A stretch of DNA of 56,419 nt from Acidobacteriota bacterium (GCA_016190945.1 JACPPO010000088.1:1-56419), one strand, 5' to 3'. Positions 1-39,272 are shown, counted from the first letter of the stretch. Notes: generated by a model from the letters alone, not told the origin. A program made the numbers and translations.

Positions 1-987
1 ATAGAGCACTGGCCCTGCCCGCTCTGGACCCGGCATCACGTCGTCTACGTCGAACGCCTCGCCGGTGACCTCGATACCGCTGCTGAGGAGCGCACCCCGC
101 AGGACGCTGGCAAACCAGAACGTCGGGTTACCAGCCGACACCGATAACTGCGCCGGCGGTGCGCCCGCGGGTATGGATCCCGCGATTGTCAGGAACGGTT
201 CGCCAGGTCGCTGTTCCGGCCAAATCAGCAGCGGTGATCCCGGAGCGCCCGTGACCGTGCTGTTAATCAGCGGCCGATATGACGCGTATGGATCGACACT
301 GAGCCTCGTTGGAGCGTCCGCGTCCGAACCGGGCGTGATCGTCACCACCATGCGGTTCTCCGCCACATTGAGCGCGCCGAACAGCACGCCGGTCGGATAC
401 CCGAGATCGTCCCACGCCCATGCGAGCTGCGGCCGCGGATCCTCCAACGCGTCGTCGTCGCCAATCACCCGGCCATCGACGCGGCGCAAGCCAAGGTCTT
501 TCAGTGTGTCGACCCAGACAGACAACTCCTCCCCCCCGCGTCCGCCAATGGACGGATCGCCCGATCCGACGATGAGCAGGTCGCCTTGGAGTGTGCCGTC
601 CACGAGAGGCGCCGTGGCACGGACGGTTGTTTCGAACCTGAAGTTCCACCCGACCGCATCAACGGCCGTTGACAGGCTGACGAGCTTTGCCGCCGACGCG
701 GGGACGAGCAGCGTACGCGGATTCAGCTCGAAAATCCGCTCGTTGCGATCGAGCGAGTGCACGACGATGCCCCAGGCGGCGCGTTGAACGCCCATCGACG
801 CCGTGGCGGCCGCGATGTCCTGTTTGAGCTGCTGGAGGGGATCGAGGCGGGGGAGTGAGAGGGTGGCGGGGGCCTTGGCACAGCCGACTAGGTCAAAAGT
901 CAAAAGGCAAAAGGTAAATCGAATACATAGGCGCCGCGACCAGGCTGGACTTGACCTCTGCCCTTTGCCCTTTGACCTACACGTCAT
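1..987 (-). CDS. dacB: D-alanyl-D-alanine carboxypeptidase/endopeptidase, PBP4 (peptidase S13) family; C-terminus lies beyond the window
   Basis: Absent from the ORF track because there is no stop in the window. My translation of the minus strand in the frame ending at nt 1 is open for all 329 codons from ATG 987-985. It reads ...AAWGIVVHSLDRNERIFELNPRTLLVPASAAKLVSLSTAVDAVGW...DLLIVGSGDPSIGG..., with the SxxK box and layout of PBP4. The start sits right after the upstream stop (TGAAATG). It is uncertain because an inverted repeat occupies the first ~100 nt. Confidence 0.7.
   Translation of the reverse strand, partial: MTCRSKGKGQRSSPAWSRRLCIRFTFCLLTFDLVGCAKAPATLSLPRLDPLQQLKQDIAAATASMGVQRAAWGIVVHSLDRNERIFELNPRTLLVPASAAKLVSLSTAVDAVGWNFRFETTVRATAPLVDGTLQGDLLIVGSGDPSIGGRGGEELSVWVDTLKDLGLRRVDGRVIGDDDALEDPRPQLAWAWDDLGYPTGVLFGALNVAENRMVVTITPGSDADAPTRLSVDPYASYRPLINSTVTGAPGSPLLIWPEQRPGEPFLTIAGSIPAGAPPAQLSVSAGNPTFWFASVLRGALLSSGIEVTGEAFDVDDVMPGPERAGPVLY
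889..979. repeat. Imperfect ~30-bp-arm inverted repeat built from period-7/8 words (GTCAAAA GTCAAAAG GCAAAAG / TTGACCT CTGCCCT TTGCCCT TTGACCT)
   Basis: Left arm 889-918 and right arm 951-979. Hand pairing gives about 21 of 30 positions paired around a 32-nt loop. The right arm is four exact-period heptads. Confidence 0.8.
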
Positions 988-988
988 T

Positions 989-2299
989 TCATTTCAAGCC
1001 GTCCAGCGCCTTGACCGCCTCGTCAAACGTCATGGCGTCGATTCTGGCGGTGCCCGGTTCGTCGGCGCGGCTGGCGAAGACGACGGCTCCCGAACGGCCG
1101 AACGTGACGGTCTCCGTCTTGCTATCGTCGAAACGCACGGTCACGGCGAGCGCCGGCATCTTCAGGGACGCGTGGGCCGCCGCCTCGAACGCCTGCGCCC
1201 GCACGTTGGAGAGCTTCGTCAGCAGATCCTCCACCTTGGCGGTGTCGATGTCTTGGCCTGTGGCGTTTCGCCAGGTCGCCTTGCCGTCACGGCTTTTTTC
1301 AAACGCCAGGGTCTCGTCGCCGCGGCGAGTGTCGATCCGGCTGGCGGTGAACGACCGGGCATCGAACATGTCCTTACGGCGATACTCCGGCACGTCCTTG
1401 GCGAGATCCGTGAAGAGGCTCTCCTCGACCGTGAAGACCTCTGGCCGCGCAGCGTCCTTTGCGAAACGCCCGCCCTCGTCAGCGCGTCCGATCAATAACG
1501 TCGCCTTAGAGCTCCCGCTGAGCACCGTCGCCGTCAACGCGGGTCGATCGAGGCCGTATGCCTTCAGGTCTCCAGCGTCGGATGCCACGATCTTCTGCAT
1601 CTGCGTCGAGGACAGCCGCGTCATCAGCCCTTCGGACGCCGCATAATCCGCCCGTACGGCGACAGGTTTCACGATGCGCCAGTCCGTTCCGTTTCTTGCA
1701 AACTGGAGGGTCGTCGAGCCGTCCACGACTTCGATGCCGTCTGCCTTGTCCCGCTCGAACCTGAGAACGACCTTGTCGCGCAGGTCGAACGGCGTCTTGT
1801 TGAAGATGGAATCAAGAAAGGACGAGATCAGGAACACCCTGTTCTCGTCGGGCCGCTTTGCGAACAGGTCGCCGCCGGTTGGTGTTTTCTCGCCGACGAG
1901 CAGGCTTTGAAAGTCCTTTCGATTCTTCACGCGGAACGCTACCTCGATGCGCGCCGGGTTGAGCCCGTACTGCGCCAGGTCAACGGGATTCTCGTCCACG
2001 ACGCGCTGGACCTCGAGCGACGCGAGGTTGCTGGTGATCGCACCGACCACTCCGGCGTCCGCATCCGCCGCGTTGGGCTCGACGAGGCGCCAGGTCTCGC
2101 CGACGCGCCGCACGCGCGAGGTTTCGCGGCTACCGTCGCGGATCTCTATCTCCTCGATGGTGTCGGCCGACAGTTCGACGAACGTCTTCGGTTTGGCGCC
2201 GGCCGCCACGGGATCTCTGCTCGCGTCGACGAAGTAGATATAGGCGACCAGACCGCCAAGCACGACCAGCAGGAGAACGGTCGACCTGAGCCCGTGCAT
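989..2299 (-). CDS. DUF4340 domain protein (accessory component of a GldG-type ABC system)
   Basis: Track ORF 989..2317. One N-terminal TM helix (LLLVVLGGLVAYIYF) followed by repeated beta-rich modules typical of DUF4340, directly downstream of a GldG-like gene. I prefer ATG 2299, which is preceded by GGAGGCGGAG, over the GTG at 2317. Confidence 0.65.
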   Translation of the reverse strand: MHGLRSTVLLLVVLGGLVAYIYFVDASRDPVAAGAKPKTFVELSADTIEEIEIRDGSRETSRVRRVGETWRLVEPNAADADAGVVGAITSNLASLEVQRVVDENPVDLAQYGLNPARIEVAFRVKNRKDFQSLLVGEKTPTGGDLFAKRPDENRVFLISSFLDSIFNKTPFDLRDKVVLRFERDKADGIEVVDGSTTLQFARNGTDWRIVKPVAVRADYAASEGLMTRLSSTQMQKIVASDAGDLKAYGLDRPALTATVLSGSSKATLLIGRADEGGRFAKDAARPEVFTVEESLFTDLAKDVPEYRRKDMFDARSFTASRIDTRRGDETLAFEKSRDGKATWRNATGQDIDTAKVEDLLTKLSNVRAQAFEAAAHASLKMPALAVTVRFDDSKTETVTFGRSGAVVFASRADEPGTARIDAMTFDEAVKALDGLK

Positions 2300-2301
2300 C
2301 G

Positions 2302-3894
2302 CTATCTCCGCCTCCACCAGGTAAAGATGCCCGCGGCGAAGACCAGTGCGGGCAGCACCAGCATGGATGTCAGCATGGCGAGGGTCTGTTGACGCGGCGT
2401 CATGGTAACCCTGCGGTCCTCCGCCGCGGTCGGACGAATGGCGATCAGGTTCTCCTGCTGCGCGAGCCAGCTGATGGCGTTGGCGAAGAGGTTGGCATTG
2501 CCGGGGACGCCGGCGTACGCGTTGGTGGCGAAATCCGAATCGCCGAACACGACGACCCTGGTTTCCGGCTTTGGAGCGTCGCTTGCCGCTGATGCGCCCT
2601 CGCTTCCGGCCAAGGCCTCCGCAGGGGCCGATACCGCGGCCCCAAGTGAGATGGGGCCGGGCTCGTCGCCGCTGGCTTCGTCCATCGCGACGCCGGTGTT
2701 GCTCGTCAGCGAGGCGAGGTTGGACTCAGCCCAGCTTTGCCGGCTCGTTTCGACAATCGATTGAGCGACGCGTCCGTTGGTGCCGCCGGATACCGCTTCG
2801 ACCGCGCGCGCGAGCGGGTAGATCGTGAGCGTCGCAAAGCGTTCCGTGATGGCGTGCGGCGGATAAATCGCCGCCACCGCGATGCTCGGCTCGTTGGTCG
2901 CGCCGCTCACATCGACGACGACGTTGTGGCCGGGATCGATGCCCCACTCCCTGATGATGGCCTCGAGGTTGGGAAGCCGCGCCGCCTGCGTGCCGACGGG
3001 TGGGTCGAGGAGGATCATCAGCTTTCCCGCCCGCCCCAGGTAGCGCCTCAGCGCGTCGGCTTCGGCTGGCAGAACGTCGGTCGTCGGGCCGGCGATCACC
3101 ACGACGGTGGCATCAGCCGGAACATCTTTCTGCTGGGCGAGCACGAGCCGCTCGACGGTGTAATTGTCCCGTCGCAGTGAACCGCTGATGGCGGTGTAGC
3201 CGTCGCGCTCGGTGCGGCTGAACTCCTTTTCACCGTGACCCTCGAGGAAGTACACCTTGCGCTCCATTGTAGACATCGCCTTGATCAGCGCATTAGTCAG
3301 ATCCTGTTCGGTGTCAGTGGTGACGCGTTGGCGGCGCCCCATGTAGTCCACGACGACAGTGCCGTAGGCCTGAACGTCGTATTCGCGCGCCACGACGGGC
3401 CTCATGTCGGGGTCGATATACTCGACGGAGACCTGACGCGAGTTGTAGGCGTACCCGTCGAGGCGGCCGCGAAACCGATCGAACTCGGTCTGCCGGTCGA
3501 ACACCGTGAACTTCACCGGCGCCTCGAGGCTTTGCAGCACCTTGACGGTCTGCTCCGACAGGCTGTGCTGCCTGCTGGCTGTCAGGTCCCAGCGCTTGTT
3601 CTGTCTTGCGCCGAGGTAGTTGACGGCCACGACGATCGCCAGCGCGACGAGCACGCCGACAGTGGCGATAGCACCGTAGCGCGCCTGGCGGCGCCGGAAG
3701 TATCCAACAATCTCCCGCCACTGGCCGAGCGTGTAAAGGACCACCAGGCCAAGGCCGGCCCACGCGCTCCACGTGGCGTACTGATCCCATTCCGGCCTGG
3801 TGAAGCGAATGGCCACGGCGCCAAAGACGAGCGCCGTTCCGACCCACCCGAGGATGCTGAGGATGCGATGCAGCATGGCTCCTATCCGCGCCAA
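2302..3894 (-). CDS. gldG: GldG-like ABC-transporter auxiliary protein (ABC-type uncharacterized transport system)
   Basis: 530-aa ORF with N- and C-terminal TM anchors around a large soluble domain (…VVFGDSDFATNAY… motif region), in the operon position after the ABC-2 permease. Confidence 0.65.
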   Translation of the reverse strand: MARIGAMLHRILSILGWVGTALVFGAVAIRFTRPEWDQYATWSAWAGLGLVVLYTLGQWREIVGYFRRRQARYGAIATVGVLVALAIVVAVNYLGARQNKRWDLTASRQHSLSEQTVKVLQSLEAPVKFTVFDRQTEFDRFRGRLDGYAYNSRQVSVEYIDPDMRPVVAREYDVQAYGTVVVDYMGRRQRVTTDTEQDLTNALIKAMSTMERKVYFLEGHGEKEFSRTERDGYTAISGSLRRDNYTVERLVLAQQKDVPADATVVVIAGPTTDVLPAEADALRRYLGRAGKLMILLDPPVGTQAARLPNLEAIIREWGIDPGHNVVVDVSGATNEPSIAVAAIYPPHAITERFATLTIYPLARAVEAVSGGTNGRVAQSIVETSRQSWAESNLASLTSNTGVAMDEASGDEPGPISLGAAVSAPAEALAGSEGASAASDAPKPETRVVVFGDSDFATNAYAGVPGNANLFANAISWLAQQENLIAIRPTAAEDRRVTMTPRQQTLAMLTSMLVLPALVFAAGIFTWWRRR

Positions 3895-4652
3895 CGTTCG
3901 CTGTCCACCGCTCGCACGGTCAGGAACAGGCTGAACGCGATGAAGGACACGTAGTACACAAGATGCTTCGTGTCGATCACGCCCCTGGCGAAATCATTCA
4001 GGTGCTCCGTGATCGACAGGTAGTTCAAGACGTTCTGCATCGTCGGGCCGGTGAACGTCGCGATCCAGTTGATGACCCAGAACAGCAGGAAGACCGCGAA
4101 CGTCACCATCCCCGCCACGATTTGATTTCGCGTGAGACTCGACACAAAGAGGCCGAGCGACAGGAAGCAGCCGCCCATGAGCAGCAGCCCCAGGTACCCC
4201 GTGGCGACCGGCCGCCATTCGGGATTGCCGAACGCGAACAGGAAGCCGATGTGAACGACCGTGACGGCCAGCATCGCGGCATACAACACCAGGCCGCCCA
4301 GAAACTTGCCCGTCACGATCTGGAGATCGGTCAGCGGAGATGTCAGAAGAAGTTCGATCGTGCCCGAGCGCTTCTCCTCGGCGTAGGTCCGCATGGTGAT
4401 GAGCGGGAGCGTGAACAGCAGAATGACGCTGACGTTCAAGAACAAGGGGGAGATCAGCATTTCGTTGACGTTCACCGACTGGGGGCCGCCGAAGCCCGCC
4501 CCCGCCTGCATCGACGCCCGGTCGAAGAAATACAGCAGGTTGATGAAGAACCAGCCGAAGAGAATCGCCGAAAACCCGATCACGACGTACGCAACCGGCG
4601 AAGCGAAGTAGCCCTTCAGCTCCTTATGCGCAATCGCCAGGACGTTATTCAT
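3882..4652 (-). CDS. ABC-2 type transporter permease (GldF-like)
   Basis: Polytopic membrane protein starting MNNVLAIAHKELKGYFASPVAYVV.... Start re-set to ATG 4652, giving an ATGAATAA overlap with the upstream ATPase stop. The track start at 4742 adds an Arg-rich non-native extension. Confidence 0.75.
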   Translation of the reverse strand: MNNVLAIAHKELKGYFASPVAYVVIGFSAILFGWFFINLLYFFDRASMQAGAGFGGPQSVNVNEMLISPLFLNVSVILLFTLPLITMRTYAEEKRSGTIELLLTSPLTDLQIVTGKFLGGLVLYAAMLAVTVVHIGFLFAFGNPEWRPVATGYLGLLLMGGCFLSLGLFVSSLTRNQIVAGMVTFAVFLLFWVINWIATFTGPTMQNVLNYLSITEHLNDFARGVIDTKHLVYYVSFIAFSLFLTVRAVDSERWRG

Positions 4653-5637: not shown

Positions 5638-5754
5638 ACCCTCGCCCCTCCTCGTAACTACTAGACCGACAGGTGTTTAGGTGCCGTCCAACCCCTAATC
5701 TTAGCCGATGCTCGGGCGAGCCGGCAACAGTCGGTCCCTGTTAGGCTGAGATCT

Positions 5755-7893: not shown

Positions 7894-7897
7894 GCGC

Positions 7898-8620: not shown

Positions 8621-8662
8621 GACAAGTGTATCGGAAGAGTGGTTGTAGACCCGTAGAGCGCG

Positions 8663-8780: not shown

Positions 8781-9002
8781 ATGGCAACCTGCCCCGAGTG
8801 CGATTTCGACGAGATTGACACGGCCGACCACGAGGAGGGCGATACCTTGAGTTGTCCCGAGTGCGGTAAGAACCTCGTGGTGTTGGGCGCCGGCGAACTC
8901 GACTTCGCCGACGACGATGACGATGATGTCGACGAAGACGACGTCGATGACGACGAGTTGGTCGACGACGAGGACGAAGTCGACAAAGAAGAGGACGAGT
9001 GA
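8781..9002 (+). CDS. LysW-like zinc-ribbon protein with a long poly-acidic C-terminal tail
   Basis: MATCPECDFDEID...EGDTLSCPECGKNLVVLGAGELDFA matches the LysW/ArgW carrier layout (CPxC...G[DE]xxxCPxCGxxLxV). 24 of the last 32 residues are Asp/Glu and the protein ends ...KEEDE. GGAG lies 6 nt upstream of the ATG. Confidence 0.6.
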   Translation: MATCPECDFDEIDTADHEEGDTLSCPECGKNLVVLGAGELDFADDDDDDVDEDDVDDDELVDDEDEVDKEEDE

Positions 9003-12162: not shown

Positions 12163-12747
12163 ATGAGACTGCGCCGTTCGGTGCTGCTGACTACTGTTGC
12201 GCTGCTGATCGTTATGGTAATGGCGAACTGCTCGAGGAGAACGCCGCCTCCAGCGCCGCCACCGCCCGCACCGCCGCCTCCGGCCGCGACCCCGCCGCCG
12301 CCACCGCCGCCGCCACCGCCGCCACCGCCACCGGCCCCCGCACCGCCGCCAGCGCCGCTGACGGAGGACGAGATCTTCTCGCGGAAAACGCTCGCCGATC
12401 TGAACGCGGAGATGCCGCTCGGGGACGCCTTCTTCGACTTCGACATGTTCGCGATCCGGGATGATGCCCGGGCCACGCTGCAGAAGAACGCGGACTATCT
12501 GAGGCGCTGGGCGTCAACACGCGTGACGATTGAAGGTCACGCGGATTCGCGGGGCACCAACGAGTACAACCTGGGGCTTGGCGACCGCCGCGCCAATGCG
12601 GTCAGAGACTACCTGGCGAGTCTCGGGATCGCCGCCGACCGGATGCTGGCTGTGACCAGGGGTGAGGAAAGCCCGCAGTGCACCGAGGAAAACGAGACCT
12701 GCTGGCAGCGGAACCGGCGCGGGCACTTCGTCTTCACGGCGAAATAG
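12163..12747 (+). CDS. pal: Peptidoglycan-associated lipoprotein (OmpA-C family) with a poly-proline linker
   Basis: Lipobox VMANC, then ~40 residues of almost pure Pro/Ala, then an OmpA-like domain (TIEGHADSRGTNEYNLGLGDRRANAV). Confidence 0.85.
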   Translation: MRLRRSVLLTTVALLIVMVMANCSRRTPPPAPPPPAPPPPAATPPPPPPPPPPPPPPAPAPPPAPLTEDEIFSRKTLADLNAEMPLGDAFFDFDMFAIRDDARATLQKNADYLRRWASTRVTIEGHADSRGTNEYNLGLGDRRANAVRDYLASLGIAADRMLAVTRGEESPQCTEENETCWQRNRRGHFVFTAK

Positions 12748-13500: not shown

Positions 13501-14426
13501 TGCTTTTCGCGTGCGCTCGTGTCGAGCGTGCCCGTCAGGTCGCTGACGCGCGAGACGCCGTGGCGCTCGAGATACTGGCGGATCCCGTCCAGGAGCTTTG
13601 TGCAGATGAACGGGTCGACGAAGTTGGCCGTGCCGACCTGCACGGCGCTGGCGCCCGCGATCAGGAACTCCAGCGCATCGCCGGTCGAGGCGATGCCCCC
13701 CATCCCAATCACCGGAATCTGCACGGCGCGGCGGCACTCGTACACCATGCGTACGGCAATCGGCCGGATCGCGGGCCCGCTCAGTCCGCCGACGATGTTC
13801 GAGAGCCTGGGCCGCCGCGTCTCGACGTCGATGGCCATGGCGAGAAAAGTGTTGACCAGCGAGACGGCGTCGGCGCCAGCCTCCTCCGAGGCGCGGGCAA
13901 ACGAGGCGACATCCGTCACGTTCGGCGTCAATTTTGGAATCACGGGGAGGCGGGTCACCTTCCTGACCGCACTGACCACGTCAAAGGTGCCGTTCAGGCT
14001 GCACCCGAACGTGATGCCGCCTTCCTTGATGTTCGGACACGAAATATTGAGTTCGAGCGCAGCCACGCCGTCCGCGTCCGACAGGATGCGCGCAAGCTCC
14101 ACATATTCGTCGAGCGTGCTGCCACAGATGTTGACGATGACCGTGGCACGGCGCTCGCGCAGCTCCGGCAGTTTTTCCTTGATGAACCGATGAACGCCGA
14201 TGCCCTGGAGTCCGATGGCGTTGAGCATTCCCGCGGGGGTTTCAACGATCCGCTCCGGCGGATGTCCCTGGCGCTCGGCGAGAAACAAGCCTTTGACGGC
14301 AACGCCGCCCAGCAGCGACAGGTCGACGACCTCTCCATATTCGACGCCGTACCCGAAACATCCACTTGCCGCGATAACGGGGTTGGCAAGCTTGAGCGAT
14401 CCGATCTGGACGGAAAGATCCGGCAC
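13485..14426 (-). CDS. pyrD: Dihydroorotate dehydrogenase B (NAD+), catalytic subunit
   Basis: LKLANPVIAASGCFGYG, class 1B features, and it follows pyrK. I prefer GTG 14426 (MPDLSVQIG...). The track start at 14459 is a TTG inside the spacer repeat. Confidence 0.85.
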   Translation of the reverse strand: MPDLSVQIGSLKLANPVIAASGCFGYGVEYGEVVDLSLLGGVAVKGLFLAERQGHPPERIVETPAGMLNAIGLQGIGVHRFIKEKLPELRERRATVIVNICGSTLDEYVELARILSDADGVAALELNISCPNIKEGGITFGCSLNGTFDVVSAVRKVTRLPVIPKLTPNVTDVASFARASEEAGADAVSLVNTFLAMAIDVETRRPRLSNIVGGLSGPAIRPIAVRMVYECRRAVQIPVIGMGGIASTGDALEFLIAGASAVQVGTANFVDPFICTKLLDGIRQYLERHGVSRVSDLTGTLDTSAREKQWISS

Positions 14427-14430
14427 GCTA

Positions 14431-14495
14431 AATCCCAACTCCCAACTCCCAACGACCAAGTCCCAGTTGGGTTCTGGGACTCAGGATTCTGGATT
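14431..14495. repeat. Heptad-word hairpin in the pyrK-pyrD spacer (CCCAACT x3 / GTTGGGT TCTGGGA CTCAGGA TTCTGGA)
   Basis: Period-7 units read directly. The core is an 8-bp perfect stem, 14459-14466 with 14474-14481, around a 7-nt loop. Confidence 0.8.
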
Positions 14496-14503
14496 CGCTC
14501 ATG

Positions 14504-19748: not shown

Positions 19749-21039
19749 GGGCGGCCGCGTGGTCGATCCCGCCAATGGAATCGACGGCGTGCATGACGTG
19801 CTCATTGATGGCGATCGGATCGCCGCGATCGGTCGCGACCTTCCGGTGGACGGTGCGGCCGTGGTGGAGATTCCGCACGGACTGGTCGTCTGTCCCGGTT
19901 TTATCGACATGCACGTCCACCTTCGCGAGCCGGGACAGGAGCACAAGGAAACCGTGGCAAGCGGGGCCGCCGCGGCGGTCGCTGGCGGCTTCACCGCCGT
20001 TGCCTGCATGCCGAATACGATCCCTGTCAATGACGACGCGAACGTCACGACCTACATCCTCGCAAAGGCGGCGGAAGCAGGCCTGGCGCGTGTCTATCCC
20101 ATCGGGGCCGTCTCGCGCGGCTCGAAAGGCGCACTGCTGGCGGACATCGCGGAGCTGAAACAGGCCGGCTGCGTCGCCATTACCGACGACGGGCATCCCG
20201 TGGCGACCGCGCTGCTGCTGCGGCGCGCCATGGAGTACGCAGGGATGTTCGGGATGCCGGTCATCGAGCACTGCGAGGACCCGTCACTCAGGGGCGACGG
20301 CGTGGCGCACGAAGGTTACCACGCGGCGATGCTCGGATTGCGCGGGATGCCGGGTGCGTGCGAGGCGCTGGGCGTGGAACGGGGCATCCTGCTGTCCGAG
20401 CTGACCGGCTCCGCCTTTCACGTCGCACACATGAGCGCGCGCGCCTCGTTGCGGGCGGTGCGGAAGGGCAAGGAGGCCGGCATCCGCGTGACCTGCGAGG
20501 TTGCACCGCATCATTTCACGCTGACCGATGAGTCCCTCGCCTCCCCGATTCCGTACGATACCAACATGAAGATGAATCCGCCGCTGCGCGAGGCCGCCGA
20601 TCGGGACGCGATGCTCGCCGGCATCGCCGACGGCAGCGTTGATGCCATCGCCACCGATCATGCGCCCCACCACTACGACGAGAAGAAAGTGGAGTTCGAC
20701 CGCGCGCCCTTCGGCATCGTCGGCCTCGAGACGGCTGTGCCGCTGTCACTCGATCGCCTCGTGCACGCCGGCCTCATCCGGCTCCCGCGTCTGGTGGAGT
20801 TACTGTCGGTGAACCCGGCGCGCATCCTCGGCGTGCGAGGCGGATCGCTGTCACCTGGCGCTCCGGCTGACGTTACAATTGTGGCGCCCGACCTTCACGT
20901 GCGGATCGAGGCGAGCCGGCTGCGTTCCCGATCAAGAAACACCCCATTCGACGGCTGGCAACTGCAGGGTGGCGTGGCGGCGACCATCGTCGGCGGTCGA
21001 CCGGTGTTCATCAATTCCGACGCCGGCCTCGCCGTATGA
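19732..21039 (+). CDS. pyrC: Dihydroorotase
   Basis: [10 protein letters not shown] metal site and ATDHAPH. Start re-set to ATG 19732 ([13 protein letters not shown]). Confidence 0.9.
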
Positions 21040-21656
21040 CGCGCCGGGACGAAATACGCGAGAAGGCGCTCAAGGACCTCCAGCAGTACGAAGTGCTGAT
21101 GCTCAACGGTCACTTCGATTTCGGCAACGGCTACCATGGCCCTGTCTATCTGAATCCGCACCAGCTCTTCCGGTATCCCTCGACGATCTGGCGCTTCGCC
21201 CAGGATCTCCTCGACGTGCTGCCCGCGTCCATCGTCGAGGCAACGGAAGTCGTCACCGGCCCCATCACGGGTGGCGCCTTGCTCGCGCACACCATGGCGG
21301 GACTGCTCGACAGCCGGAGGGCGATCACCAGCCCGCCCACGCTCTTTGCGCCTCTTACGCTCGACGCCGACCGTGGGCACACACTCACGCGCTTCTACGA
21401 GTGTCAGGTTGCCGGAAAGAAGGCTCTGGTCGTCGATGACGTCCGCAACACCGGTCAGACGCAGGCCCGCTGCGTGGAGCTCGTGCGCAAGGCAGGCGGC
21501 ACGGTCCTCGCCACCGCGGAACTCTACGACCGGCTGGAAGCCATGGTCGACGCCGGCGTTCCGAACGTCGCCCTTGCGGAGTACAAGGCGCCGGACAACT
21601 ATCCTGCCGAGCGCTGCCCGCTGTGTCGGACAGGCACGCCCGTCACGACGTTTTAG
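21036..21656 (+). CDS. pyrE: Type I phosphoribosyltransferase, probable orotate phosphoribosyltransferase
   Basis: PRPP loop ALVVDDVRNTGQT. ATGA-coupled to pyrC at the end of the pyr operon. The C-terminal CPLC tail is atypical. Confidence 0.55.
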   Translation: MTRRDEIREKALKDLQQYEVLMLNGHFDFGNGYHGPVYLNPHQLFRYPSTIWRFAQDLLDVLPASIVEATEVVTGPITGGALLAHTMAGLLDSRRAITSPPTLFAPLTLDADRGHTLTRFYECQVAGKKALVVDDVRNTGQTQARCVELVRKAGGTVLATAELYDRLEAMVDAGVPNVALAEYKAPDNYPAERCPLCRTGTPVTTF

Positions 21657-22148: not shown

Positions 22149-23036
22149 GTGCCGTCACCCCGACGCTCCGAGCTGCGCGCGCCCTTCGAACGGCTCTATC
22201 GCACGTTCGATCGCCTGCACTCAGCCGGCGATCCCGTACACATCGTCCGGCGCTACACCGCGCCGGACGATCGCGAGGTGGTCGGTTTCTGCGCCGCCGG
22301 CCTGGCCTTCGGACGGGTCGCCAGCGTGCTGAACTCGATCGAGGCGCTGCTGGCCGTCATGGGCCCGCGGCCGGCGGCGTTCGTGCGCAGCTTCCATCCT
22401 CTGAAGGACCGTGGGCGGCTCGCGCCGCTCGTGCACCGGTGGATTCGCGGCCAGGATCTGATTGCGCTGGTGCTTGTTCTGCAGCGGATGCTTCGCGAGT
22501 CCGGATCGATCGAACGCTTTTTTCTGGCGGGTGATGACGCGGAGGCGCCTGACATCGGACCGGCCCTCGACGCCTTCTCGACGCGAGCGCTTGCCACGGA
22601 TGTGCGCCCCGCCTACGGCCGCATGCCCAGGCGCCCGGGCGTTTGCTCCTTTTTCCCACGGCCCTCGGCCGGCAGTGCCTGCAAGCGTCTCAACCTGTTC
22701 CTGCGCTGGATGGTGCGGAAGGACGTCGTCGATCTCGGCGTGTGGACGGGACTGTCGTCCTCACGGCTCATCGTGCCGCTCGACACGCACGTGATCCGCC
22801 TGGGGCAATGCCTGCGGCTGACGCGCTACCGGAGTCCCGGATGGAAGATGGCAGCGGAGATTACCGCGTCGCTGCGCGCCCTCGATCCCGTCGATCCCGT
22901 GCGCTACGACTTCTCCCTCTGCCACGTTGGGATGATGAACGCCTGCGGATTCAACCGGGCTCAGAAGGATTCGCAGTGTCCCCTGCGTGGCGTGTGCCAT
23001 CCGAAGGTCAAAGGTCAACCGTCAAAGCTTCGTTAG
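22149..23036 (+). CDS. TIGR02757 (DUF2400) family protein
   Basis: CKRLNLFLRWMVRKD...VPLDTHV...C..CP.. layout typical of this family. GTG start. The last 11 codons are read from a heptad-word repeat. Confidence 0.55.
   Translation: MPSPRRSELRAPFERLYRTFDRLHSAGDPVHIVRRYTAPDDREVVGFCAAGLAFGRVASVLNSIEALLAVMGPRPAAFVRSFHPLKDRGRLAPLVHRWIRGQDLIALVLVLQRMLRESGSIERFFLAGDDAEAPDIGPALDAFSTRALATDVRPAYGRMPRRPGVCSFFPRPSAGSACKRLNLFLRWMVRKDVVDLGVWTGLSSSRLIVPLDTHVIRLGQCLRLTRYRSPGWKMAAEITASLRALDPVDPVRYDFSLCHVGMMNACGFNRAQKDSQCPLRGVCHPKVKGQPSKLR
23007..23027 (+). repeat. Orphan heptad-word arm GTCAAAG GTCAACC GTCAAAG
   Basis: Three period-7 units forming the C-terminal codons (KVKGQPSK) of the TIGR02757 gene. It is followed by the hairpin AGCTTCG-TTAGCA-CGAAGCT, whose loop holds the TAG stop. 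Confidence 0.75.
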
Positions 23037-23094: not shown

Positions 23095-23120
23095 GGGCCG
23101 CCCCCCCGAGGGGGCGGCCC
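23095..23120 (-). terminator. Intrinsic terminator of the TPR lipoprotein gene
   Basis: An 11-bp all-GC stem (GGGCCGCCCCC-CCGA-GGGGGCGGCCC), followed on the minus strand by TTTT. Confidence 0.65.
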
Positions 23121-27071: not shown

Positions 27072-27094
27072 GATTGCCTTTCTAATGATAAACC

Positions 27095-27167
27095 GTGGGC
27101 CGAAAGTCAAAGGTCGGAGGTCAACCTCGCGTCCCGGGCAGGATTTGCCTCTTGACCTTTGACCCAC
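27095..27167. repeat. Heptad-word hairpin upstream of rpmB (GTCAAAG GTCGGAG GTCAACC / TTGCCTC TTGACCT TTGACCC)
   Basis: A perfect 10-bp stem, GTCAAAGGTC (27106-27115) with GACCTTTGAC (27154-27163), plus an outer GTGGG/CCCAC pair. Confidence 0.85.
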
Positions 27168-27191
27168 GAGAAACGATTCAGCATAACAGGT

Positions 27192-29623: not shown

Positions 29624-29666
29624 CTGTTCGGGTCGTTCGAACCGTTCGGTGCGTGGCTCTTTCGCA

Positions 29667-29697
29667 GGGCGGCCCTCCCAGGCCGCCCTTTCTCTTT
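29667..29697 (+). terminator. Intrinsic terminator after the dksA-like gene
   Basis: GGGCGGCC-CTCCCA-GGCCGCCC followed by TTTCTCTTT. Confidence 0.65.
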
Positions 29698-29708: not shown

Positions 29709-32147
29709 ATGAGCGAACGCGACGAGGCGATGGATCTTCAGGAGGTATCGTTGGGCGACCGGCCGCGTGCCATTCCCGCCGAGCTTCCGATTCTTCCGCT
29801 GCGCGACACCGTCCTCTTTCCCAACTCGTTCATGCCACTCGCGGTGGCGAGGGAGAGCTCCGTGCGGCTGATCGATGAGGCGATTTCCAGCGGTTCGCTG
29901 ATTGGAGTCTTCACCCAACGCGACGCCTCCGTCGAGGAACCACAGCAGGACGACCTGTACCGCGTGGGGACGGCGAGCCACATCCACAAGATGTTCAAGC
30001 TGCCGGACGGAAGTCTGCGCCTGATCGTTCAGGGCCTCTCGCGGCTGACGCTCGAGCAGGTGACCGACACGCGGCCGTACCTGCGGGCCCGCGTGAGCGC
30101 CGCGGCCGAGGCCACCAACGAGGCCGACCATCTCGAGGTCGACGCGCTCCTGCGCAACATCAAGACGAATTTTCAGCAGGTCGTCTCGCTCTCACCCCTG
30201 CTCTCCAACGATCTGCAGACGCTGGCCACCAGTATCGCCGAGCCTGGCCGGCTGACTGACTTCATCGCCTCGAGCCTCACCACCATCGCCACGTCCGTCA
30301 AGCAGGAGGTGCTCGAGACGCTCGACGTGCGCACGCGCATGGACACCCTGAACCGTATTTTGGTCAAGGAACTCGAGGTCCTGGAACTCGGGTCCAGGAT
30401 TCAGTCGCAGGTGCAGTCCGAAGTTGGCAAGAACCAGCGCGAATATTTCCTTCGCGAGCAGATGAAGGCGATCCAGAAGGAGCTTGGCGAGGGCGACGAC
30501 CAGACAAGGGACGTGGAGGAGCTGCAGCAGAAGATCGACGCCGCGGGCATGCCCGATGCCGTGAAAAAGGAAGCGCTGCGCGAGCTCGATCGGCTGTCCA
30601 AGATGCCCGTGGCGGCGGCCGAGTACACAGTGTCCCGGACGTATCTGGACTGGCTGATCACCCTGCCGTGGCAGAAACGGACGGATGAAGTCATCGACCT
30701 GCCGAAGGCCAAGGCGGTGCTCGATGCCGATCACACCGGGCTGGCCAAGGCCAAGGACCGCATTCTCGAATACCTGGCGGTGCGCAAGCTAAACCCCGGC
30801 GTGAAGGGCCCCATACTGTGCTTCGTTGGCCCGCCTGGCGCCGGCAAGACCTCCCTTGCGCGATCGATCGCGCAATCACTCGGCCGGAAGTTCGTCCGGG
30901 TGTCGCTGGGTGGCATGCGCGACGAGGCCGAGATCCGCGGACATCGCCGCACCTACATCGGTGCGCTCCCTGGCCAAATCGTGCAGGGCCTGCGCCGGGC
31001 GGAGTCGAAGAACCCGGTTTTCATCCTCGACGAGATCGACAAGCTCGGCTCCGATTTCCGCGGGGATCCGGCGTCAGCGCTGCTGGAGGTCCTGGATCCC
31101 GAGCAGAACTCGACGTTCAGGGACCACTACCTCGACGTGCCGTTCGACCTGTCGGAGGTGCTGTTCATTACCACCGCGAACGTCCTCGACCCGGTACCGC
31201 CCGCGCTTCGCGATCGGATGGAGGTGCTCGAGATCCCCGGATACACGGAGGAAGAGAAGCTGGCGATCGCGCGCGAGCACCTGGTGGAGAAGCAGGTCAC
31301 GAACCACGGCCTGACTCCCGATCAGTTCACGATTACCGACGCCGCGCTGAGCGCGGTGATTCGCGGGTACACGCGCGAGGCCGGGGTCCGCAATCTCGAG
31401 CGCGAGATCGGCGCGCTGTGCCGCAAAGCGGCCCGCCGCCGCGCGGAAGGCAACCTCGACCCGCTCCTCGTCACGCCGGAGATCGTGGCCGAGATGCGCG
31501 GCGCCCCCATCTTCCTGGACGAGGAGATGGAAGAGCGCACCAAGGAGCCCGGTGTCGCCATCGGCCTGGCCTGGACGCCCGCGGGCGGCGACGTCCTGTT
31601 CGTCGAGGCATCGCGCATGGCGGGCACCGGCACGCTCACGCTGACGGGCCAGCTCGGTGAGGTCATGAAGGAGTCGGCCCGCGCGGCGCTGTCGTGGTTT
31701 CGCGCCCACGCGGCGGCGTACGGCGCCGAGCCGGATTTTTTCAAGAACGCTGAAGTTCATCTGCACGTCCCGGCGGGCGCCATTCCGAAAGACGGCCCTT
31801 CGGCAGGCGTGACCATCGCCACGGCGCTCGCATCCGAACTGACCGGACGGCCCGTGCGCGGCGATATTGCAATGACGGGAGAAATTACGCTCTCGGGCCG
31901 CGTGCTGCCGGTGGGCGGCATCAAGGAAAAGGTGCTTGCGGCCCGGCGCGCGGGCATCCGCGAAGTCATCCTGCCGAGGCAGAACGAGAAGAACGTCAAG
32001 GAGGATTTGACGGAAGCACTGCGGCGCGAGTTGACATTCCACTTCGTCCAGAGCGTGCACGAGGTACTGCTCCTGGCCCTGATGCCTGGGCCACAGGCGT
32101 CAGGTGTCAAGAAGACTGATCGCCGCGTGCAGCCGCGGGTTCAGTGA
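29709..32147 (+). CDS. lon: ATP-dependent Lon protease
   Basis: LON N-domain, Walker [10 protein letters not shown] and catalytic PKDGPSAG. Confidence 0.95.
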
Positions 32148-32689
32148 CCTTTGACCTCCAGCAACAGCAGCCCCGCGACGGTCTTCAGGTCGACGATCTG
32201 CCCCGAACCGATCATCTGTCGTATCGCCTCGACTGAGAACGCCCTGGCTTCGATGTCCTCGTCCTCATCCTGCTGGGCGGCGGAATCCTCATCCGTCGGT
32301 GCACGCAAGCCTGTCGCGCGATAAAAACTCATCTCCTCGTCGCAGTAGCCCGGCGTAGGAAAGAACGCGCCGAGGCGCTCCACGGCGGAAGGGATCAGAC
32401 CGATCTCTTCGTGACATTCACGCACGGCGGCCGCTCGCGGATCTTCTCCCTGTTTGAGGCTCCCCGCCGGTAGTTCCCACGCCGACCGACCAATCGCGTG
32501 GCGGTACTGTCGGACGAGCACGATCTCTCCGCTGTCGGTCGTCGGGATCAGCACGACCGAACCAGGATGGCGGACGATCTCCGCCTCGAGCCGGGCGCCG
32601 CTCGACAGCGTGATCGACTCCACAGTGACGGCAAGAATCCGCCCCTCGAAGACCTTGCGGATCCGATGCGGCACAATCGGCTTATTCAT
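32141..32689 (-). CDS. NUDIX hydrolase (ADP-ribose pyrophosphatase-like)
   Basis: Nudix box GSLKQGEDPRAAAVRECHEEIG. Start re-set to ATG 32689 (ATGAATAA overlap with rluD). The 3' end overlaps the lon stop by 7 nt. Confidence 0.8.
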   Translation of the reverse strand: MNKPIVPHRIRKVFEGRILAVTVESITLSSGARLEAEIVRHPGSVVLIPTTDSGEIVLVRQYRHAIGRSAWELPAGSLKQGEDPRAAAVRECHEEIGLIPSAVERLGAFFPTPGYCDEEMSFYRATGLRAPTDEDSAAQQDEDEDIEARAFSVEAIRQMIGSGQIVDLKTVAGLLLLEVKGH

Positions 32690-33629: not shown

Positions 33630-33632
33630 GGC

Positions 33633-34929: not shown

Positions 34930-37748
34930 CAGCCGTTCACGGGCTCGGCCAGGGCCTCGACGCAGCGGTCGCAGATCCCCGCCCAGTCGGGCTCCGTCCG
35001 GACGCTCCGCACGTACCGCCAGCACCGATCGCATCTGACCCCGTCGACCTTTCGGACGCGAATATTGGACGACGGCGAGACCATCGAGCCGCCGTCCCCG
35101 GCGAATCCAGCGCTCACCCGAATGGGGCCGACACCCACATCCGATACGCCGAACAACGTTGGCAAGAAGTCTTGGTACTGCCTGAAGAACGCGAAGCCGT
35201 TATCGTCGAATTCAAGATCGACGCGTGCTGACAGGTTCGAGCTGATCGTCTTGGCCTGTCTCGCATTCTCAAGCTCGACGTTTACGCGATCTCTCACTGA
35301 CCGGAGCTGGTCCCATTGGTGCAGCAGTGCATCGTTCTCCCATGCAACGACATCGGACGGGAAGACCGCGAGGTGCACAGACGGCTCCCGCTGCCCGGGT
35401 ATATTGCGCCACACCTCGTCCGTCGTGAACGGCAGGATGGGCGCGAGGAGCCGTGCGAGGCCGTCGACGATGAAGAACATGGCGGTTTGCCCGGAGCGGC
35501 GCGCTTCCGACTTCGCGCCGAGCGTGTACATGCGGTCTTTCGTGATGTCCACGTAAAACGCGCTGAGATCGACCGTGATGAACGCGTTGACCACTTGATA
35601 GATCGTCGGGTAGTCGTACTGGTCGTACGCCTTCACTATCTTGGCGGCAACACCCGCATGGCGCGCCATCACCCAACGATCGATCTCCAGCATGCGTGAC
35701 GGCGGCACGGCGTCCGCACTTGGATCGAAGTCAAACAGATTCCCCAGCAAAACGCGTAGCACATTGCGGAACTTCCGATAAGCCTCGACAACACGCGCGA
35801 GAATCTCGGGACCGAGGCGTACCTCCTCGCCGTAGTCGACCATCGACACCCACAACCGCAGGATCTCGGCGCCGCTCTGCTTGATCACATCCTGCGGCGC
35901 CACGGTATTGCCGAGCGACTTCGACATCTTCCGGCCCTGCTCGTCGACGACAAAGCCGTGGGTGAGCACCTGCCTGAACGGCGCCTCGCCACGGGTCCCG
36001 AGCCCGATGAGCAGCGAGCTGTGGAACCATCCGCGATGCTGATCGCTACCTTCCAGATACATGTCGGCGGGCCACGTCAGATTCGCGTCCGGCGGTAGCA
36101 CGGCCTGGTGGCTCGATCCGGAGTCAAACCAGACATCCAGGATGTTGTACTCCCGATCGAAGGCGTGGCCGCCGCAACGAGGGCACGTGAGACCCGCGGG
36201 GACGAACTCCGCCGCCGGCCGCTCGTACCAGGCGTCGGCGCCATGCTGTTCGAACACATGTGCCGCGCGCTCGACGAGATCCGTCGTCAGGACCGGCGTC
36301 CGGCACTCCGTGCAATTCACCGCCGGAATCGGTACGCCCCAGGATCGCTGTCGCGAGATGCACCAGTCGGGCCGGAGCGCGACCATGTTGTAGATGCGGT
36401 CGCGTCCCCAGGCGGGGATCCACCGCACGCGGTCAACGGCCGCGAGCGCCTGCCGCCGGAGGCCGCCTGTGTCCATCGAAATGAACCACTGAGACGTGGC
36501 GATAAAGACGACCGGATTCTGGCAGCGCCAACAGTGCGGATACGAATGCTCGAAGCTCTCGCGGTGCCACAGGCGCCCTCGCTCCTTCAGCGCGGCTTCG
36601 ATGTTCGGGTTTGCATCGAAGACACGCTGGCCACCGAAACGTTCCACGGTGTCGAGAAACCGCCCGCCCGCGTCCACTGGCGTATAGATGTCGAGCCCGT
36701 ATTTCACGCCCGTGTGGAAGTCGTCGCTGCCGTGACCGGGCGCGGTATGCACCACACCGGTACCCTGTTCGAGCGTGACATAGTCACCAAGCACCGCAAG
36801 CGAGTCACGGTCGTACAGGGGATGGCGAAAGACGAGACGTTCCATGGACGCGCCGGGGAACGTTGCGACCGGCTCACCTAACGCTCGGCCCGTCGCCTGA
36901 CTCACGCGATCGGCAAGGGCCTGCGCCACGACGAGGTGCGTGCTGCCGACCGGATAAGCGCCGTAGATGAGGGCTGGATGGAAGGCAATAGCGAGATTCG
37001 ACGGAATCGTCCAGGGCGTCGTCGTCCAGATGAGAGTTGACACATAGCGCCCGGAGAGCTCCGGGACGCGCGCGGCGAGATCGTCCGCGCAGCCGAGCGC
37101 GAGCCGGAACTCGACGTAGATGGACGGTGATGTGTGCGGCTCGTACTCGACCTCGGCCTCAGCGAGCGCCGTCCGGCAGTGGATGCACCAGTGGACGGGC
37201 TTCTTGCCCTTGTACACCATGCCCTTCTCGACGAACGTGCCGAGCGCGCGGACGATCGCCGCCTGGTAAAGGTGGTTCATCGTCAGGTACGGCCGGGACC
37301 AGAGACCGAGCACGCCGAGACGCTCGAATTCCTCGCGCTGGATCTGCACGTACTGGTCGGCGTAGCGGCGGCACGCCCGGCGAAAGTCCACCACGCCCAT
37401 GTCGCGCTTCTTCGGCCCGAGCTCGCGGTCGACCTTGAGCTCGATCGGCAAGCCGTGGCAGTCCCATCCCGGCACGTACGGGGCGTCGTAGCCGGCCATC
37501 GTGCGCGAGCGGACGACGAAGTCCTTGAGAATCTTGTTGAGGGCGTGTCCGATGTGGATGTGTCCGTTCGCGTACGGGGGACCGTCGTGCAGCACGAACT
37601 TCGGCCGGCCCGCGCGGTTCTGCCGGATCCGTCCGTACAGATCCATTGCCTGCCAGCGCGCCAGCCATTCCGGTTCGGCGGTCTGCAGGTTCGCCTTCAT
37701 CGGGAAACCTGTTCGCGGCAGGTTTACCGTGTTCTTCCACTCGGGCAT
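34929..37748 (-). CDS. ileS: Isoleucine--tRNA ligase
   Basis: HIGH ([11 protein letters not shown]), KMSKS and a C-terminal Zn finger (CDRCW...CDRC). Confidence 0.95.
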
Positions 37749-37754
37749 TTATGT

Positions 37755-37827
37755 CAGGAGGCAGGAAGCAGCAGGCAGACAAACCACGATGACCGGGCGC
37801 TGCCTACCGCCTGCTGCCTACTGCTAG
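37755..37827. repeat. Heptad-word hairpin in the ileS/M16 divergent region (CAGGAGG CAGGAAG CAGCAGG / CTGCCTA CCGCCTG CTGCCTA CTGCTAG)
   Basis: Period-7 units read directly. The core is a 9-bp stem, GCAGCAGGC (37768-37776) with GCCTGCTGC (37809-37817). Confidence 0.8.
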
Positions 37828-37831
37828 ATTC

Positions 37832-37837
37832 TATAAT
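37832..37837 (+). promoter_or_regulatory. -10 element TATAAT, 12 nt upstream of the M16 peptidase ATG
   Basis: Read directly. There is no good -35; that position is occupied by the hairpin's right arm. Confidence 0.35.
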
Positions 37838-37849
37838 GCAGGGATAGCC

Positions 37850-39238
37850 ATGCTCGAACGGCGCTCAACCGCGTCACACGTGCACGAAGAGGTCCTCGAC
37901 AACGGCCTGCGTGTGCTGATTCAGGAGATGCACACGGCGCCGCTGGCGTCCGTGTGGTGCTGGTATCGTGTCGGCTCGAAGGACGAAGCCACCGGCCAGA
38001 CGGGCGTATCGCACTGGGTCGAGCACATGAACTTCAAGGGGACCACCAACATCCCGCGCGACAAGGTCAAAGGGATCATCGAGCAGTTCGGCGGCTACTG
38101 GAACGGATATACGTGGATCGATCAGACTGCTTATACCGAGACCGCCACGCGCGATGCGCTCGACCGGATGCTCTTCATCGAGGCCGAGCGGATGGCGAAC
38201 TGCCTGTACGATCCAGCCGATTGTGAGTCGGAGCGCACGGTCATCATCTCTGAGTTGCAGGGGGGCGAGAACGATCCGGAGACGCTCCTCGACCAGGAGC
38301 TGACCGCGACCGCCTTCAAGGCGCATCCGTACCGGCATCCCACGATTGGCTGGCTCTCGGATCTCCGAACGATGACCCGGGATGATTTGTACGGGTACTA
38401 CCGGCGGTTCTACGTTCCCAATAACGCCACCCTGGTCGTCGTGGGTGACGTCGACACCAACGACGCGATGCGTCGCGTTGTCCAGCATTTCGGCGGCATC
38501 CGGCCCGTTGACGTGGCACGGAGGCCTCATACGCTGGAGCCGCGGCAGCTCGGCGAGCGGCGGCTGACGCTTTCACGCGAGGGCACGACCGCGTATCTCA
38601 AGCTCGGCCATCACGCGCCGGCGATAGGCGACCCGGATTTCTTTCCGATGCTGGTGCTCGACGCCGTGCTCACCGGCGCGAAGGGTCTCAATCTGTGGGC
38701 AAGCTTTCGCACGCCTCCGCCACAGCGCAGCGCGCGGCTGTATCGGGCGCTGGTCGACGCCGGTCTTGCCTCATCGGTTATGGGCGGGCTGGTGCCGACC
38801 TCAGAGCCGTTCCTCTACACGATTTCGATGACCGCGACCGACGGCACGCCGGTCGCGCGGCTGGAGGAGACCGCGCTTGGCGAGCTCAATCGCGTCCGAT
38901 TGCGAGGCGTGACGGAGACGGAGCTGCAAAAGGCGACCAGGCAGCTGCGCGCCCGCCTCGTGTTCGAAAATGACAGCATCTCCAACATTGCCCACCAGCT
39001 CGGCTTCTTCGAGTCGATCGCGAGCTGGCGGATCTGCGAGACGCTGCGGGACCGGATCGACGCCGTCTCGCTCGAGCAGGTGGCCGCCGCGGCGTTCGAG
39101 CGTCTGAAGCCGTTCAATCGAACCGTTGCCTGGTTTGAGCCGCTGCCGGTCGGCGCAGGCGGGGAAGTCCCGACAGGGGACGGCGCCGGCCCCGCGTCCA
39201 CGGGCCGCAGAGTCACAGAGACACAGAGTCACCGATGA
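37850..39238 (+). CDS. M16 family zinc peptidase (catalytic subunit)
   Basis: Inverzincin motif HWVEH plus a downstream E. The C-terminal tail RVTETQSHR is read from a repeat arm. Confidence 0.85.
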   Translation: MLERRSTASHVHEEVLDNGLRVLIQEMHTAPLASVWCWYRVGSKDEATGQTGVSHWVEHMNFKGTTNIPRDKVKGIIEQFGGYWNGYTWIDQTAYTETATRDALDRMLFIEAERMANCLYDPADCESERTVIISELQGGENDPETLLDQELTATAFKAHPYRHPTIGWLSDLRTMTRDDLYGYYRRFYVPNNATLVVVGDVDTNDAMRRVVQHFGGIRPVDVARRPHTLEPRQLGERRLTLSREGTTAYLKLGHHAPAIGDPDFFPMLVLDAVLTGAKGLNLWASFRTPPPQRSARLYRALVDAGLASSVMGGLVPTSEPFLYTISMTATDGTPVARLEETALGELNRVRLRGVTETELQKATRQLRARLVFENDSISNIAHQLGFFESIASWRICETLRDRIDAVSLEQVAAAAFERLKPFNRTVAWFEPLPVGAGGEVPTGDGAGPASTGRRVTETQSHR

Positions 39239-39272
39239 CAAGTATTTCTCCGTGTTTCTGCGGCTCTGTGGC
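39205..39272. repeat. Octad-word hairpin between the two M16 genes (AGTCACAG AGACACAG AGTCACCG / ...CTGCGG CTCTGTGG)
   Basis: Period-8 left arm at 39211-39234. CCGCAG/CTGCGG and CACAGAG/CTCTGTG pairings are possible. Confidence 0.7.

Follow-up and report, generated by a model that had tools for sequence, protein, structure and literature searches.

Five hairpins whose arms are built from tandem words of 7 or 8 nucleotides (nt) are found in a 56,419-nt stretch of DNA from an Acidobacteriota bacterium (GCA_016190945.1, JACPPO010000088.1:1-56419), here called the window, with a G+C content of 65%. The closest homologs of an M16 peptidase encoded in the window are named Vicinamibacterales or Acidobacteria, and its source is a Vicinamibacterales-like soil acidobacterium. 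Locus 1 (889-979) is not intergenic but occupies approximately codons 3 to 33 of a minus-strand Peptidase_S13 (PBP4/DacB) gene. Locus 2 (14431-14495) lies in the 77-nt spacer from the stop codon of a pyrK-like gene (14504, minus strand) to the GTG codon at 14426 (minus strand) that probably starts pyrD; in the minus-strand mRNA, its TTGGGAG units just upstream of pyrD look like a putative ribosome-binding site. Locus 3 (27095-27167) is placed upstream of rpmB, between the stop codon of a gene for a 212-amino-acid protein (27192, minus strand) and the rpmB (L28) start (27071, minus strand). Locus 4 (37755-37827) separates the divergent ileS-like and M16 genes; its left arm begins at a distance of 7 nt from the start codon of the ileS-like gene (37748, minus strand), and its right arm abuts the M16 gene's conserved -10-like box, ATTCTATAAT. 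Locus 5 (39205-39272), in which the word is the 8-nt unit CACAGAGN, present three times and followed by its complement, is found between two M16 peptidase genes. The stop codon of the first of these, TGA at 39236-39238, falls in the hairpin loop, the second gene starts at 39291, and the left arm encodes the C-terminal tail of the first peptidase (GRRVTETQSH/RRVTETQSHR). A tail encoded by this arm, STGHRVTETxSRK, is present in several homologs. Including an unpaired array within the final codons of a DUF2400 gene (22149-23036), every array in the window is situated at a gene edge.

Reading of the five loci bore out the architecture given in the original prediction, that is, tandem 7- or 8-nt words facing their complements, with a word that differs between loci. 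To compare them with chance expectation, we used a composite score combining the lag-p identity of both arms with arm complementarity (3-unit arms, loops of 3 to 60 nt) and, as a control, shuffled the window 40 times with its dinucleotides preserved. The scores of four loci exceeded those of every shuffle. At period 7, the scores were 41 for 888-980, 38 for 14429-14497, and 38 for 37754-37824 (shuffle maximum, 35), and at period 8 the score was 43 for 39201-39275 (shuffle maximum, 38). Locus 3, in which the arms comprise only two to three degenerate units, did not pass and is a weaker example. The shuffle comparison proposed in the original prediction also favored the plain arrays, with four period-7 arrays in the window versus 0.5 expected. 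Tandem Repeats Finder returned the same arrays and, in addition, the unpaired array of three GGTCAAA units at 23004-23027. The predicted 7-nt period, which cannot be a coding periodicity, is supported, and in the lineage period 7 exceeded the neighboring periods; period-9 hits of the composite score were ordinary coding repeats of the trinucleotide type. Folding of single strands gave -23 to -46 kcal/mol. Periodic mismatches in the stems kept the z-scores of three loci modest (-1.5 to -2.5); locus 5 folded strongly (-45.7 kcal/mol, z = -7.1), and locus 3 folded well (-36.9 kcal/mol, z = -3.5). Two other search statistics were abandoned: a strict array finder was too stringent and recovered only two loci, and a multi-register inverted-repeat statistic failed to find loci or gave approximately one background hit per period. 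Together with the counts of inverted partners described below, the composite score shows that the hairpins are real paired arrays, on opposite strands and close together, of 7-nt simple repeats, with one octanucleotide case.

Table 1. Coordinates and composition of the hairpin arms and of the unpaired array in the window
Feature	Position	Strand	Sequence or remark
Locus 1 arm A	889..918	+	TAGGTCA AAAGTCA AAAGGCA AAAGGTA, period 7
Locus 1 spacer	between arms A and B		~32 nt
Locus 1 arm B	951..979	+	TTGACCT CTGCCCT TTGCCCT TTGACCTA
Locus 2 left arm	14431..14459	+	(TCCCAAC) x3-4
Locus 2 right arm	14464..14495	+	degenerate complement (CCCAGTTGGGTTCTGGGACTCAGGATTCTGG)
Unpaired array	23004..23027	+	AAGGTCA AAGGTCA ACCGTCA AAG
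Locus 3 outer stem	27094-27168		CGTGGG/CCCACG
Locus 3 left arm	27106..27126	+	GTCAAAG GTCGGAG GTCAACC, weak array
Locus 3 right arm	27144..27163	+	TTTGCCT CTTGACC TTTGAC
Locus 4 left arm	37755..37778	+	CAGGAGG CAGGAAG CAGCAGG CAG
Locus 4 right arm	37800..37827	+	CTGCCTA CCGCCTG CTGCCTA CTGCTAG
Locus 5 left arm	39203..39232	+	period 8: GGCC GCAGAGT CACAGAGA CACAGAGT CAC
Locus 5 right arm	39248..39273	+	CTCCGTG TTTCTGCG GCTCTGTG GCC

The hairpin of locus 1 lies in a translated region. The ATG codon of the PBP4 gene is located at 985-987 on the minus strand, one base past the DUF4340 stop codon, and the reading frame runs through the whole hairpin. Once this frame had been found, an interpretation of the locus as a terminator between convergent genes was rejected. 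In the minus-strand mRNA, arm B forms the 5' arm, with the codons for the charged n-region CRSKGKGQRS, and arm A is the 3' arm and encodes FTFCLLTFDLVGC, which comprises the hydrophobic region and the lipobox of the PBP4 lipoprotein. The PBP4 homologs start with a lipoprotein signal peptide consisting of MTCRS, an insert of 0 to 16 residues, and ALCLLTFDLLGC. Sequences from relatives are denoted here by L numbers. In the orthologs L208, L209, and L211 the numbers of AAGGTCA/AAGGGCA units differ, the frame is kept, and the predicted folds amount to -33 to -56 kcal/mol, whereas the L210 site has no array and folds with -19 kcal/mol. Three heptamers make seven codons (KGKGQRS), and Lys codons are complementary to Phe and Leu codons; judged by this codon complementarity, the signal peptide position may tolerate, or even seed, such a hairpin. 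Together with the C-terminal M16 tail encoded by the left arm of locus 5, the signal peptide encoded by both arms of locus 1 substantiates the original statement that arms spill into open reading frames (ORFs), and it provides a concrete route from a noncoding repeat to protein sequence, in the form of signal peptides and C-terminal tails. It also matters for annotation, since the hairpins displace predicted start and stop codons, as for the PBP4 gene, of which the start called automatically (P0121) is a TTG codon inside a hairpin arm.

To survey the occurrence of such arrays, a scan for three tandem GTCAAAG units was carried out with one genome per species, and 8-kb stretches were fetched around the matches. 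Among the matches listed, many phyla were represented. This distribution was not accepted as proof of a special word, for with so many arrays in 596 Gb any word may recur. The fetched stretches contained many other words in arrays, and period 7 was dominant in every group. In 194 kb from Vicinamibacterales, there were 33 period-7 arrays versus 5, 1, and 2 arrays of periods 6, 8, and 9, respectively; the corresponding numbers for periods 7 and 8 were 126 versus 16 in 265 kb from Cyanobacteria and 72 versus 8 in 202 kb from Bacteroidota. An inverted partner within 250 nt was detected for 20 of the 33 arrays in Vicinamibacterales, 18/27 in other Acidobacteriota, and 6/12 in Gemmatimonadota, whereas arrays in Cyanobacteria (17/126) and Bacteroidota (14/72) were mostly unpaired. 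Searches with the reversed, noncomplemented array as a control gave 0 to 5 hits across the groups and none for Vicinamibacterales. Pairing therefore distinguishes the arrays of Acidobacteriota and Gemmatimonadota from those of the other groups. Beside these counts, GTCAAAG in Acidobacteriota and Gemmatimonadota took the form of short inverted pairs, and unpaired GTCAAAG arrays of 23 to 46 units were seen in Oscillatoria sp. (L033), Rivularia and Tolypothrix (L073 and L083), and a member of Fibrobacterota (L101); L077 has 12 complementary units downstream.

A second sample, chosen without regard to repeats, comprised 84 loci and 798 kb, namely, 80 contigs from a metagenome scan with the M16 protein plus L124 to L127. 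It contained 56 period-7 arrays versus approximately 7 expected by chance, as scaled from the shuffle rates of the window, and 30 of the 56 had an inverted partner within 250 nt, compared with 2 in the control. Only 10 arrays lay mostly in ORF cores, though cores make up 84% of the sequence, and the remaining 46 were outside them. In approximately 1 Mb of related contigs overall, the arrays peak at period 7, over half have an inverted partner, and ORF interiors are avoided; a mapping to gene boundaries in relatives had been proposed in the original prediction.

Orthologous junctions differed widely in their repeat content. At the M16/M16 junction, most of 43 relatives have a 4-nt ATGA overlap of the two genes. 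The 8-mer hairpin is intact only in the window, L124/L128, and L126 (-47 to -57 kcal/mol), and its right arm is decayed in L125 and L127/L131. Depending on the relative, the ileS/M16 spacer is free of hairpins, has a simple GC hairpin, or contains heptamer arrays, which differ greatly in length. L125 has approximately 8 left and 4.5 right units, and L127 has 4.5 left units with an identical right arm, so that the two arms change independently. Variation in unit number is thus evident at these arrays, as it is at the PBP4 signal peptide hairpin. The hairpin of the L28 leader is missing from L002 and L205. In the window, Lon and NUDIX are convergent genes whose stop codons overlap (TCAGTGA, 32141-32150), with zero spacer; in relatives, the hairpin sequence, where present, measures 20 to 140 nt. 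Among 23 unique relatives, 8 lack a spacer at this junction, about 6 show a simple hairpin or a short spacer that is free of arrays, and 9 have heptamer arrays, which use at least five words (GTCAAAG, CCCAACT, CCCAAAT, CCAGGAG, and CAAAACG). At a given junction, close relatives of the window either lack the hairpin or use another word, and differences in presence were seen between relatives approximately 89% identical in protein sequence. Judging from these alignments, arrays appear to arise and decay quickly at gene edges. The orthologous series includes all stages, from an empty site through a 12-nt palindrome, unequal arms, and a long nested palindrome to a decayed remnant, and this makes the order of events testable.

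Promoter elements of the M16 gene were noticed in the same alignments. Its TATAAT box is highly conserved across the clade (approximately 70 loci), and many relatives have a TTGTAC-like hexamer 17 to 18 nt upstream of it. In the subclade of the window, the right hairpin arm (37800-37827) occupies the position of this TTGTAC-like/-35 element.

At three independent sites, one arm was found to extend a motif that is native to hairpin-less sequences, and the opposite arm was new. The first motif, CCTTTGACC, is present at the end of the NUDIX gene in the hairpin-less window, where it encodes the C terminus ..EVKGH. The second, CTACTACTTACTATAAT or a 12-nt palindrome, GTAAGTACTTAC, is found beside the M16 -10 box in hairpin-less relatives, and the third, TTGACCTTTGAC, specifies the residues LTFD of the minimal signal peptide that PBP4 has in L210. 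The account best supported by these data, and one that we hold to be reasonably probable, is that the inverted pairs of heptamer (in one case octamer) simple sequence repeats arise in place by inverted copying and slippage. The seed would be a small palindrome or a short motif native to a gene edge, as seen at these three sites. An inverted copy would then be made on its other side, possibly by intrastrand template switching or fold-back synthesis, a copying step that we infer from the match of one arm with the native motif of hairpin-less relatives; a bias of insertions toward similar sequence is an alternative for this step. Each arm would finally gain or lose 7-nt units separately, a change in copy number that the orthologs display and that replication slippage could bring about. 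The unlike copy numbers of orthologous arms support slippage as the likely generator, as had been proposed originally. Arrays would persist only where extra sequence is tolerated, such as in intergenic spacers, C-terminal tails, and the signal peptide region, and would later decay or be lost. Effects on expression are probably secondary and not the reason for the arrays. They might include a hairpin in the intergenic mRNA, loss of ATGA translational coupling, a displaced -35 region, or a sequestered ribosome-binding site. The hairpins, of a repeat type that abounds in this Vicinamibacterales lineage, are neither copies of a master element nor conserved RNA genes.

Differences in presence between such similar relatives, and the recurrence of the same words at unrelated loci and in many genomes, would also be expected of small nonautonomous mobile elements that were inserted by a transposase and then diversified, similarly to repetitive extragenic palindromic (REP) sequences, their inverted doublets (REPINs), or miniature transposable elements of the inverted-repeat type (MITEs). 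Some outer ends, GTAGGTC...GACCTAC, recall the GTAG tag of REPs (PMC3733652). However, the ends are not conserved (TAGGTC, AAGGTC, CAGGTC, and AAGTC occur), and the REP idea that they had suggested was dropped. REPs and REPINs, which are mobilized by REP-associated tyrosine transposases (RAYTs), share with the loci described here the form of intergenic imperfect palindromes, with inverted doublets as long hairpins, and a presence that varies between strains. Members of a REP family are related in sequence, carry a conserved tag (GTAG or CGTC), and have a cognate transposase (PMC3733652), whereas the window loci have no conserved tag or core, their arms are tandem repeats, and each locus has a unique center. 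Likewise, no internal sequence characteristic of a MITE is shared, loci with the same word having only that word in common, and no flanking or target-site duplication was found at the three insertion sites aligned with empty sites. A pair of CGATGAC motifs at 39233 and 39288 was considered as such a duplication and rejected, since the left arm is outside the interval and no simple insertion is bounded by it. Different words at the same junction in different relatives, unequal unit numbers of the two arms, and the coincidence of one arm with native sequence further argue against transposition, which we regard as a very improbable origin. Regarding centers, six loci of one genome have outer GGTCAAA units in common but not their inner words or centers. 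Five long nested palindromes of 150 to 300 nt in the Vicinamibacterales metagenome-assembled genome SMAG_U4494 (L049, L056, L094, L100, and L108) have such outer units, but the inner words (AGGTNNN units, or 13- to 15-mers such as GTCTCAGGTCTAC) and the center are peculiar to each.

Selection for RNA or DNA structure deserves more weight. The hairpins might be maintained as bidirectional terminators, stabilizers of transcript ends, or intergenic insulators, with tandem heptamers as an easy source of long stems. The fact that approximately 15 of the 23 relatives possess a simple GC hairpin or an array at the convergent Lon/NUDIX junction is in line with this idea, as are the low folding energies of all four intact locus 5 orthologs and an A-rich 5' arm and T-rich 3' arm that recall the layout of bidirectional terminators. 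In the locus 5 hairpin, moreover, an A-U pair is exchanged for G-C in L126, with an A.C intermediate in the window. Of the compensatory changes that the original prediction had proposed to look for, two double-sided ones were seen, but with four intact orthologs the covariation was not significant, 59 of 500 shuffles scoring as high. In addition, close relatives cope with zero spacer or a 4-nt gene overlap, and the M16/M16 hairpin decays in L125 and L127. As had been predicted, the positions are not only terminator-like: among them are the 5' end of a coding region, a divergent promoter, and two junctions within operons, and three of the five loci are not downstream of a transcription unit. 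None of the five showed the features of an intrinsic terminator (G+C-rich stem, short loop, and T-run, downstream of a gene) in a consensus scan. Canonical intrinsic terminators are present in the window at 23095-23120 (minus strand) and 29666-29689 (plus strand), each with a T-run behind a GC stem (11 and 9 pairs, respectively), which implies that this genome uses ordinary terminators. A scan of the window with Rfam 15 at the gathering scores found no family at the hairpins, its sole match being a tRNA at 56319-56391 (minus strand). On balance, we consider selection for structure a rather unlikely explanation of the arrays. A role of the hairpins as RNA processing sites, another suggestion of the original prediction, is conceivable. 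As a separate observation, the second of these terminators lies at a site where two relatives have period-9 arrays (TCGTTCGGG, GTTCGGATC) directly after a dksA-like gene (L001 1701-1742, L003 1774-1799).

The original prediction knew of no described repeat class with these properties, which proved wrong. Bacterial heptamer repeats were already known in 1990 (Mazel 1990), and their over-representation was shown in 2007 (Mrazek 2007). According to the citations of the latter work in two subsequent papers (PMC4679880, PMC4692102), in many bacteria no other long simple repeats are as abundant as those of heptanucleotides, and polymerase slippage was proposed as their cause; short tandemly repeated repetitive (STRR) heptamers of Calothrix are also cited there (PMC4692102). 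Inverted pairs have been reported from Xanthomonas and Geobacter. In Xanthomonas campestris and X. axonopodis, GGGAATC arrays form 70 to 75 inverted pairs in each genome (Rehm et al. 2015, PMC4692102). As in the window, these are close, convergent heptamer arrays on opposite strands, capable of forming stem-loops, in a GC-rich genome. They are mostly intergenic, occur in all gene orientations, and differ in length and presence between related species. Xanthomonas, however, uses essentially one G-rich, quadruplex-capable word, whereas at least four words are present in the 56-kb window, none of them dominant in this manner; of these, only CCCAACT/AGTTGGG at 14431 is of the G3 type, and some of the window arms are coding. 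Several word classes in one genome were described for Geobacter metallireducens as "global regulator binding sites" of classes 1 to 3 (Aklujkar et al. 2009, PMC2700814), with the words GTTGCTYN, TCTCCGTS[Y], and MTYCTGA, 3 to 5 tandem units, and opposite-strand pairs at variable distance. Each Geobacter class is a family of 16 to 48 similar sites as judged by BLAST, some at a fixed distance from insertion sequence (IS) elements, whereas window loci with the same word share the word alone and no association with IS elements was seen in the window. The STRR sequences of cyanobacteria and other heptanucleotide long simple sequence repeats, including the TAACTGA repeats (MacGregor 2015, PMC4679880), resemble the arrays studied here in the dominance of period 7, the many words per genome, the intergenic location, often beside start codons, and the patchy phylogenetic distribution, and differ from them in being mostly unpaired. 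In the literature searched, we found no description of such arrays in Acidobacteria. The window loci therefore belong to an already described but little-studied class, the inverted pairs of heptamer simple repeats. What they add is the presence of several words in a single genome, the nesting of palindromes, independent births that recurred at one and the same junction, and the recruitment of arms as coding sequence.

Tandem and inverted heptads of the form WATCACW are bound by the omega repressor of plasmid pSM19035. In related genomes, AATCACG and AAATCAC heptads in arrays, a number of them inverted pairs, were noticed at L049 2561-2594, L056 2217-2309, L107 3838-3871, and L108 245-354, and we take them to be reminiscent of these operators. 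More generally, the arrays could be binding sites for DNA- or RNA-binding proteins, with one protein unit per heptad and facing arrays forming an operator or a nucleoprotein complex. This would accommodate the strict 7-nt period and the coverage of the M16 promoter -35 position by the right arm of locus 4, and it was the interpretation given to paired hepta- and octanucleotide arrays in the Geobacter genome paper (PMC2700814). In Nostoc, deletion of heptamer repeats at recO altered reporter output (bioRxiv 10.1101/2022.06.06.494920). With no fewer than four unrelated words in 56 kb and dozens across the lineage, many such proteins would nevertheless be required, and no candidate for them was identified. 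The sites are, moreover, not conserved between close relatives, and arrays also occur inside coding sequence, which together make a role as binding arrays improbable.

Several observations weigh against a purely local birth of the pairs by inverted copying and slippage. Given approximately 1,170 heptamer classes, a few words recur at unrelated loci far above expectation. GTCAAAG is found at 889, 23004, and 27095 and at L001 4228, and CCCAACT at 14431, L003 4290, L001 15858, and many more loci. Local seeds do not predict this recurrence, which hints at a word preference arising from mutation bias, selection, or a binding factor. Creation of the second arm is inferred rather than observed, and the 7-nt step is not accounted for. 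Furthermore, the arms have a polarity that neutral slippage leaves unexplained: A exceeds T in the 5' arm of 15 of 17 hairpins, some of which are at orthologous sites, and a GTCAAAG array was positioned 5' of a CTTTGAC array in approximately 22 cases versus 3. Finally, 98% of the cells are paired in the alignment of the intact locus 5 orthologs, and this, together with the frequent hairpins at the Lon/NUDIX junction, could reflect selection for structure; templating of one arm by the other would leave the same pattern of pairing at locus 5.

It is tempting to speculate that a specific DNA transaction makes an inverted copy of a short gene-edge motif and lengthens both copies by 7 nt at a time, preferentially with the A-rich arm 5' and the T-rich arm 3', that it is shared by patchily distributed phyla, and that it serves as a source of new coding sequence, although we consider this a doubtful proposition as a whole. 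The bacteria sharing the process would then be Acidobacteriota, Gemmatimonadota, Xanthomonas, Geobacter, cyanobacteria, and Bacteroidota. An in-frame A-rich arm would supply a stretch rich in Lys, Gly, and Arg, and a T-rich arm one rich in Phe and Leu, so that both together would amount to a ready-made n-region and h-region of a signal peptide, as in the PBP4 lipoprotein; new C-terminal tails could be gained in the same way.

Apart from the arrays, strong tandem repeats in the window are limited to coding low-complexity repeats with periods of 9, 12, and 18 nt at 8909-8992 and 12242-12358 (CGACGACGA..., CCGCCGCCA...). Three copies of a period-7/8 repeat, TGATGCGG, were also found within the region of the RF-1 (prfA) gene, at 42725-42747. 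This repeat is conserved in relatives (L002 14824-14846, L003 14662-14684) and is a phenomenon different from the boundary arrays. In L001, fragments of an IS1595-family transposase flank the syntenic block (655-1116 and 20823-21377).

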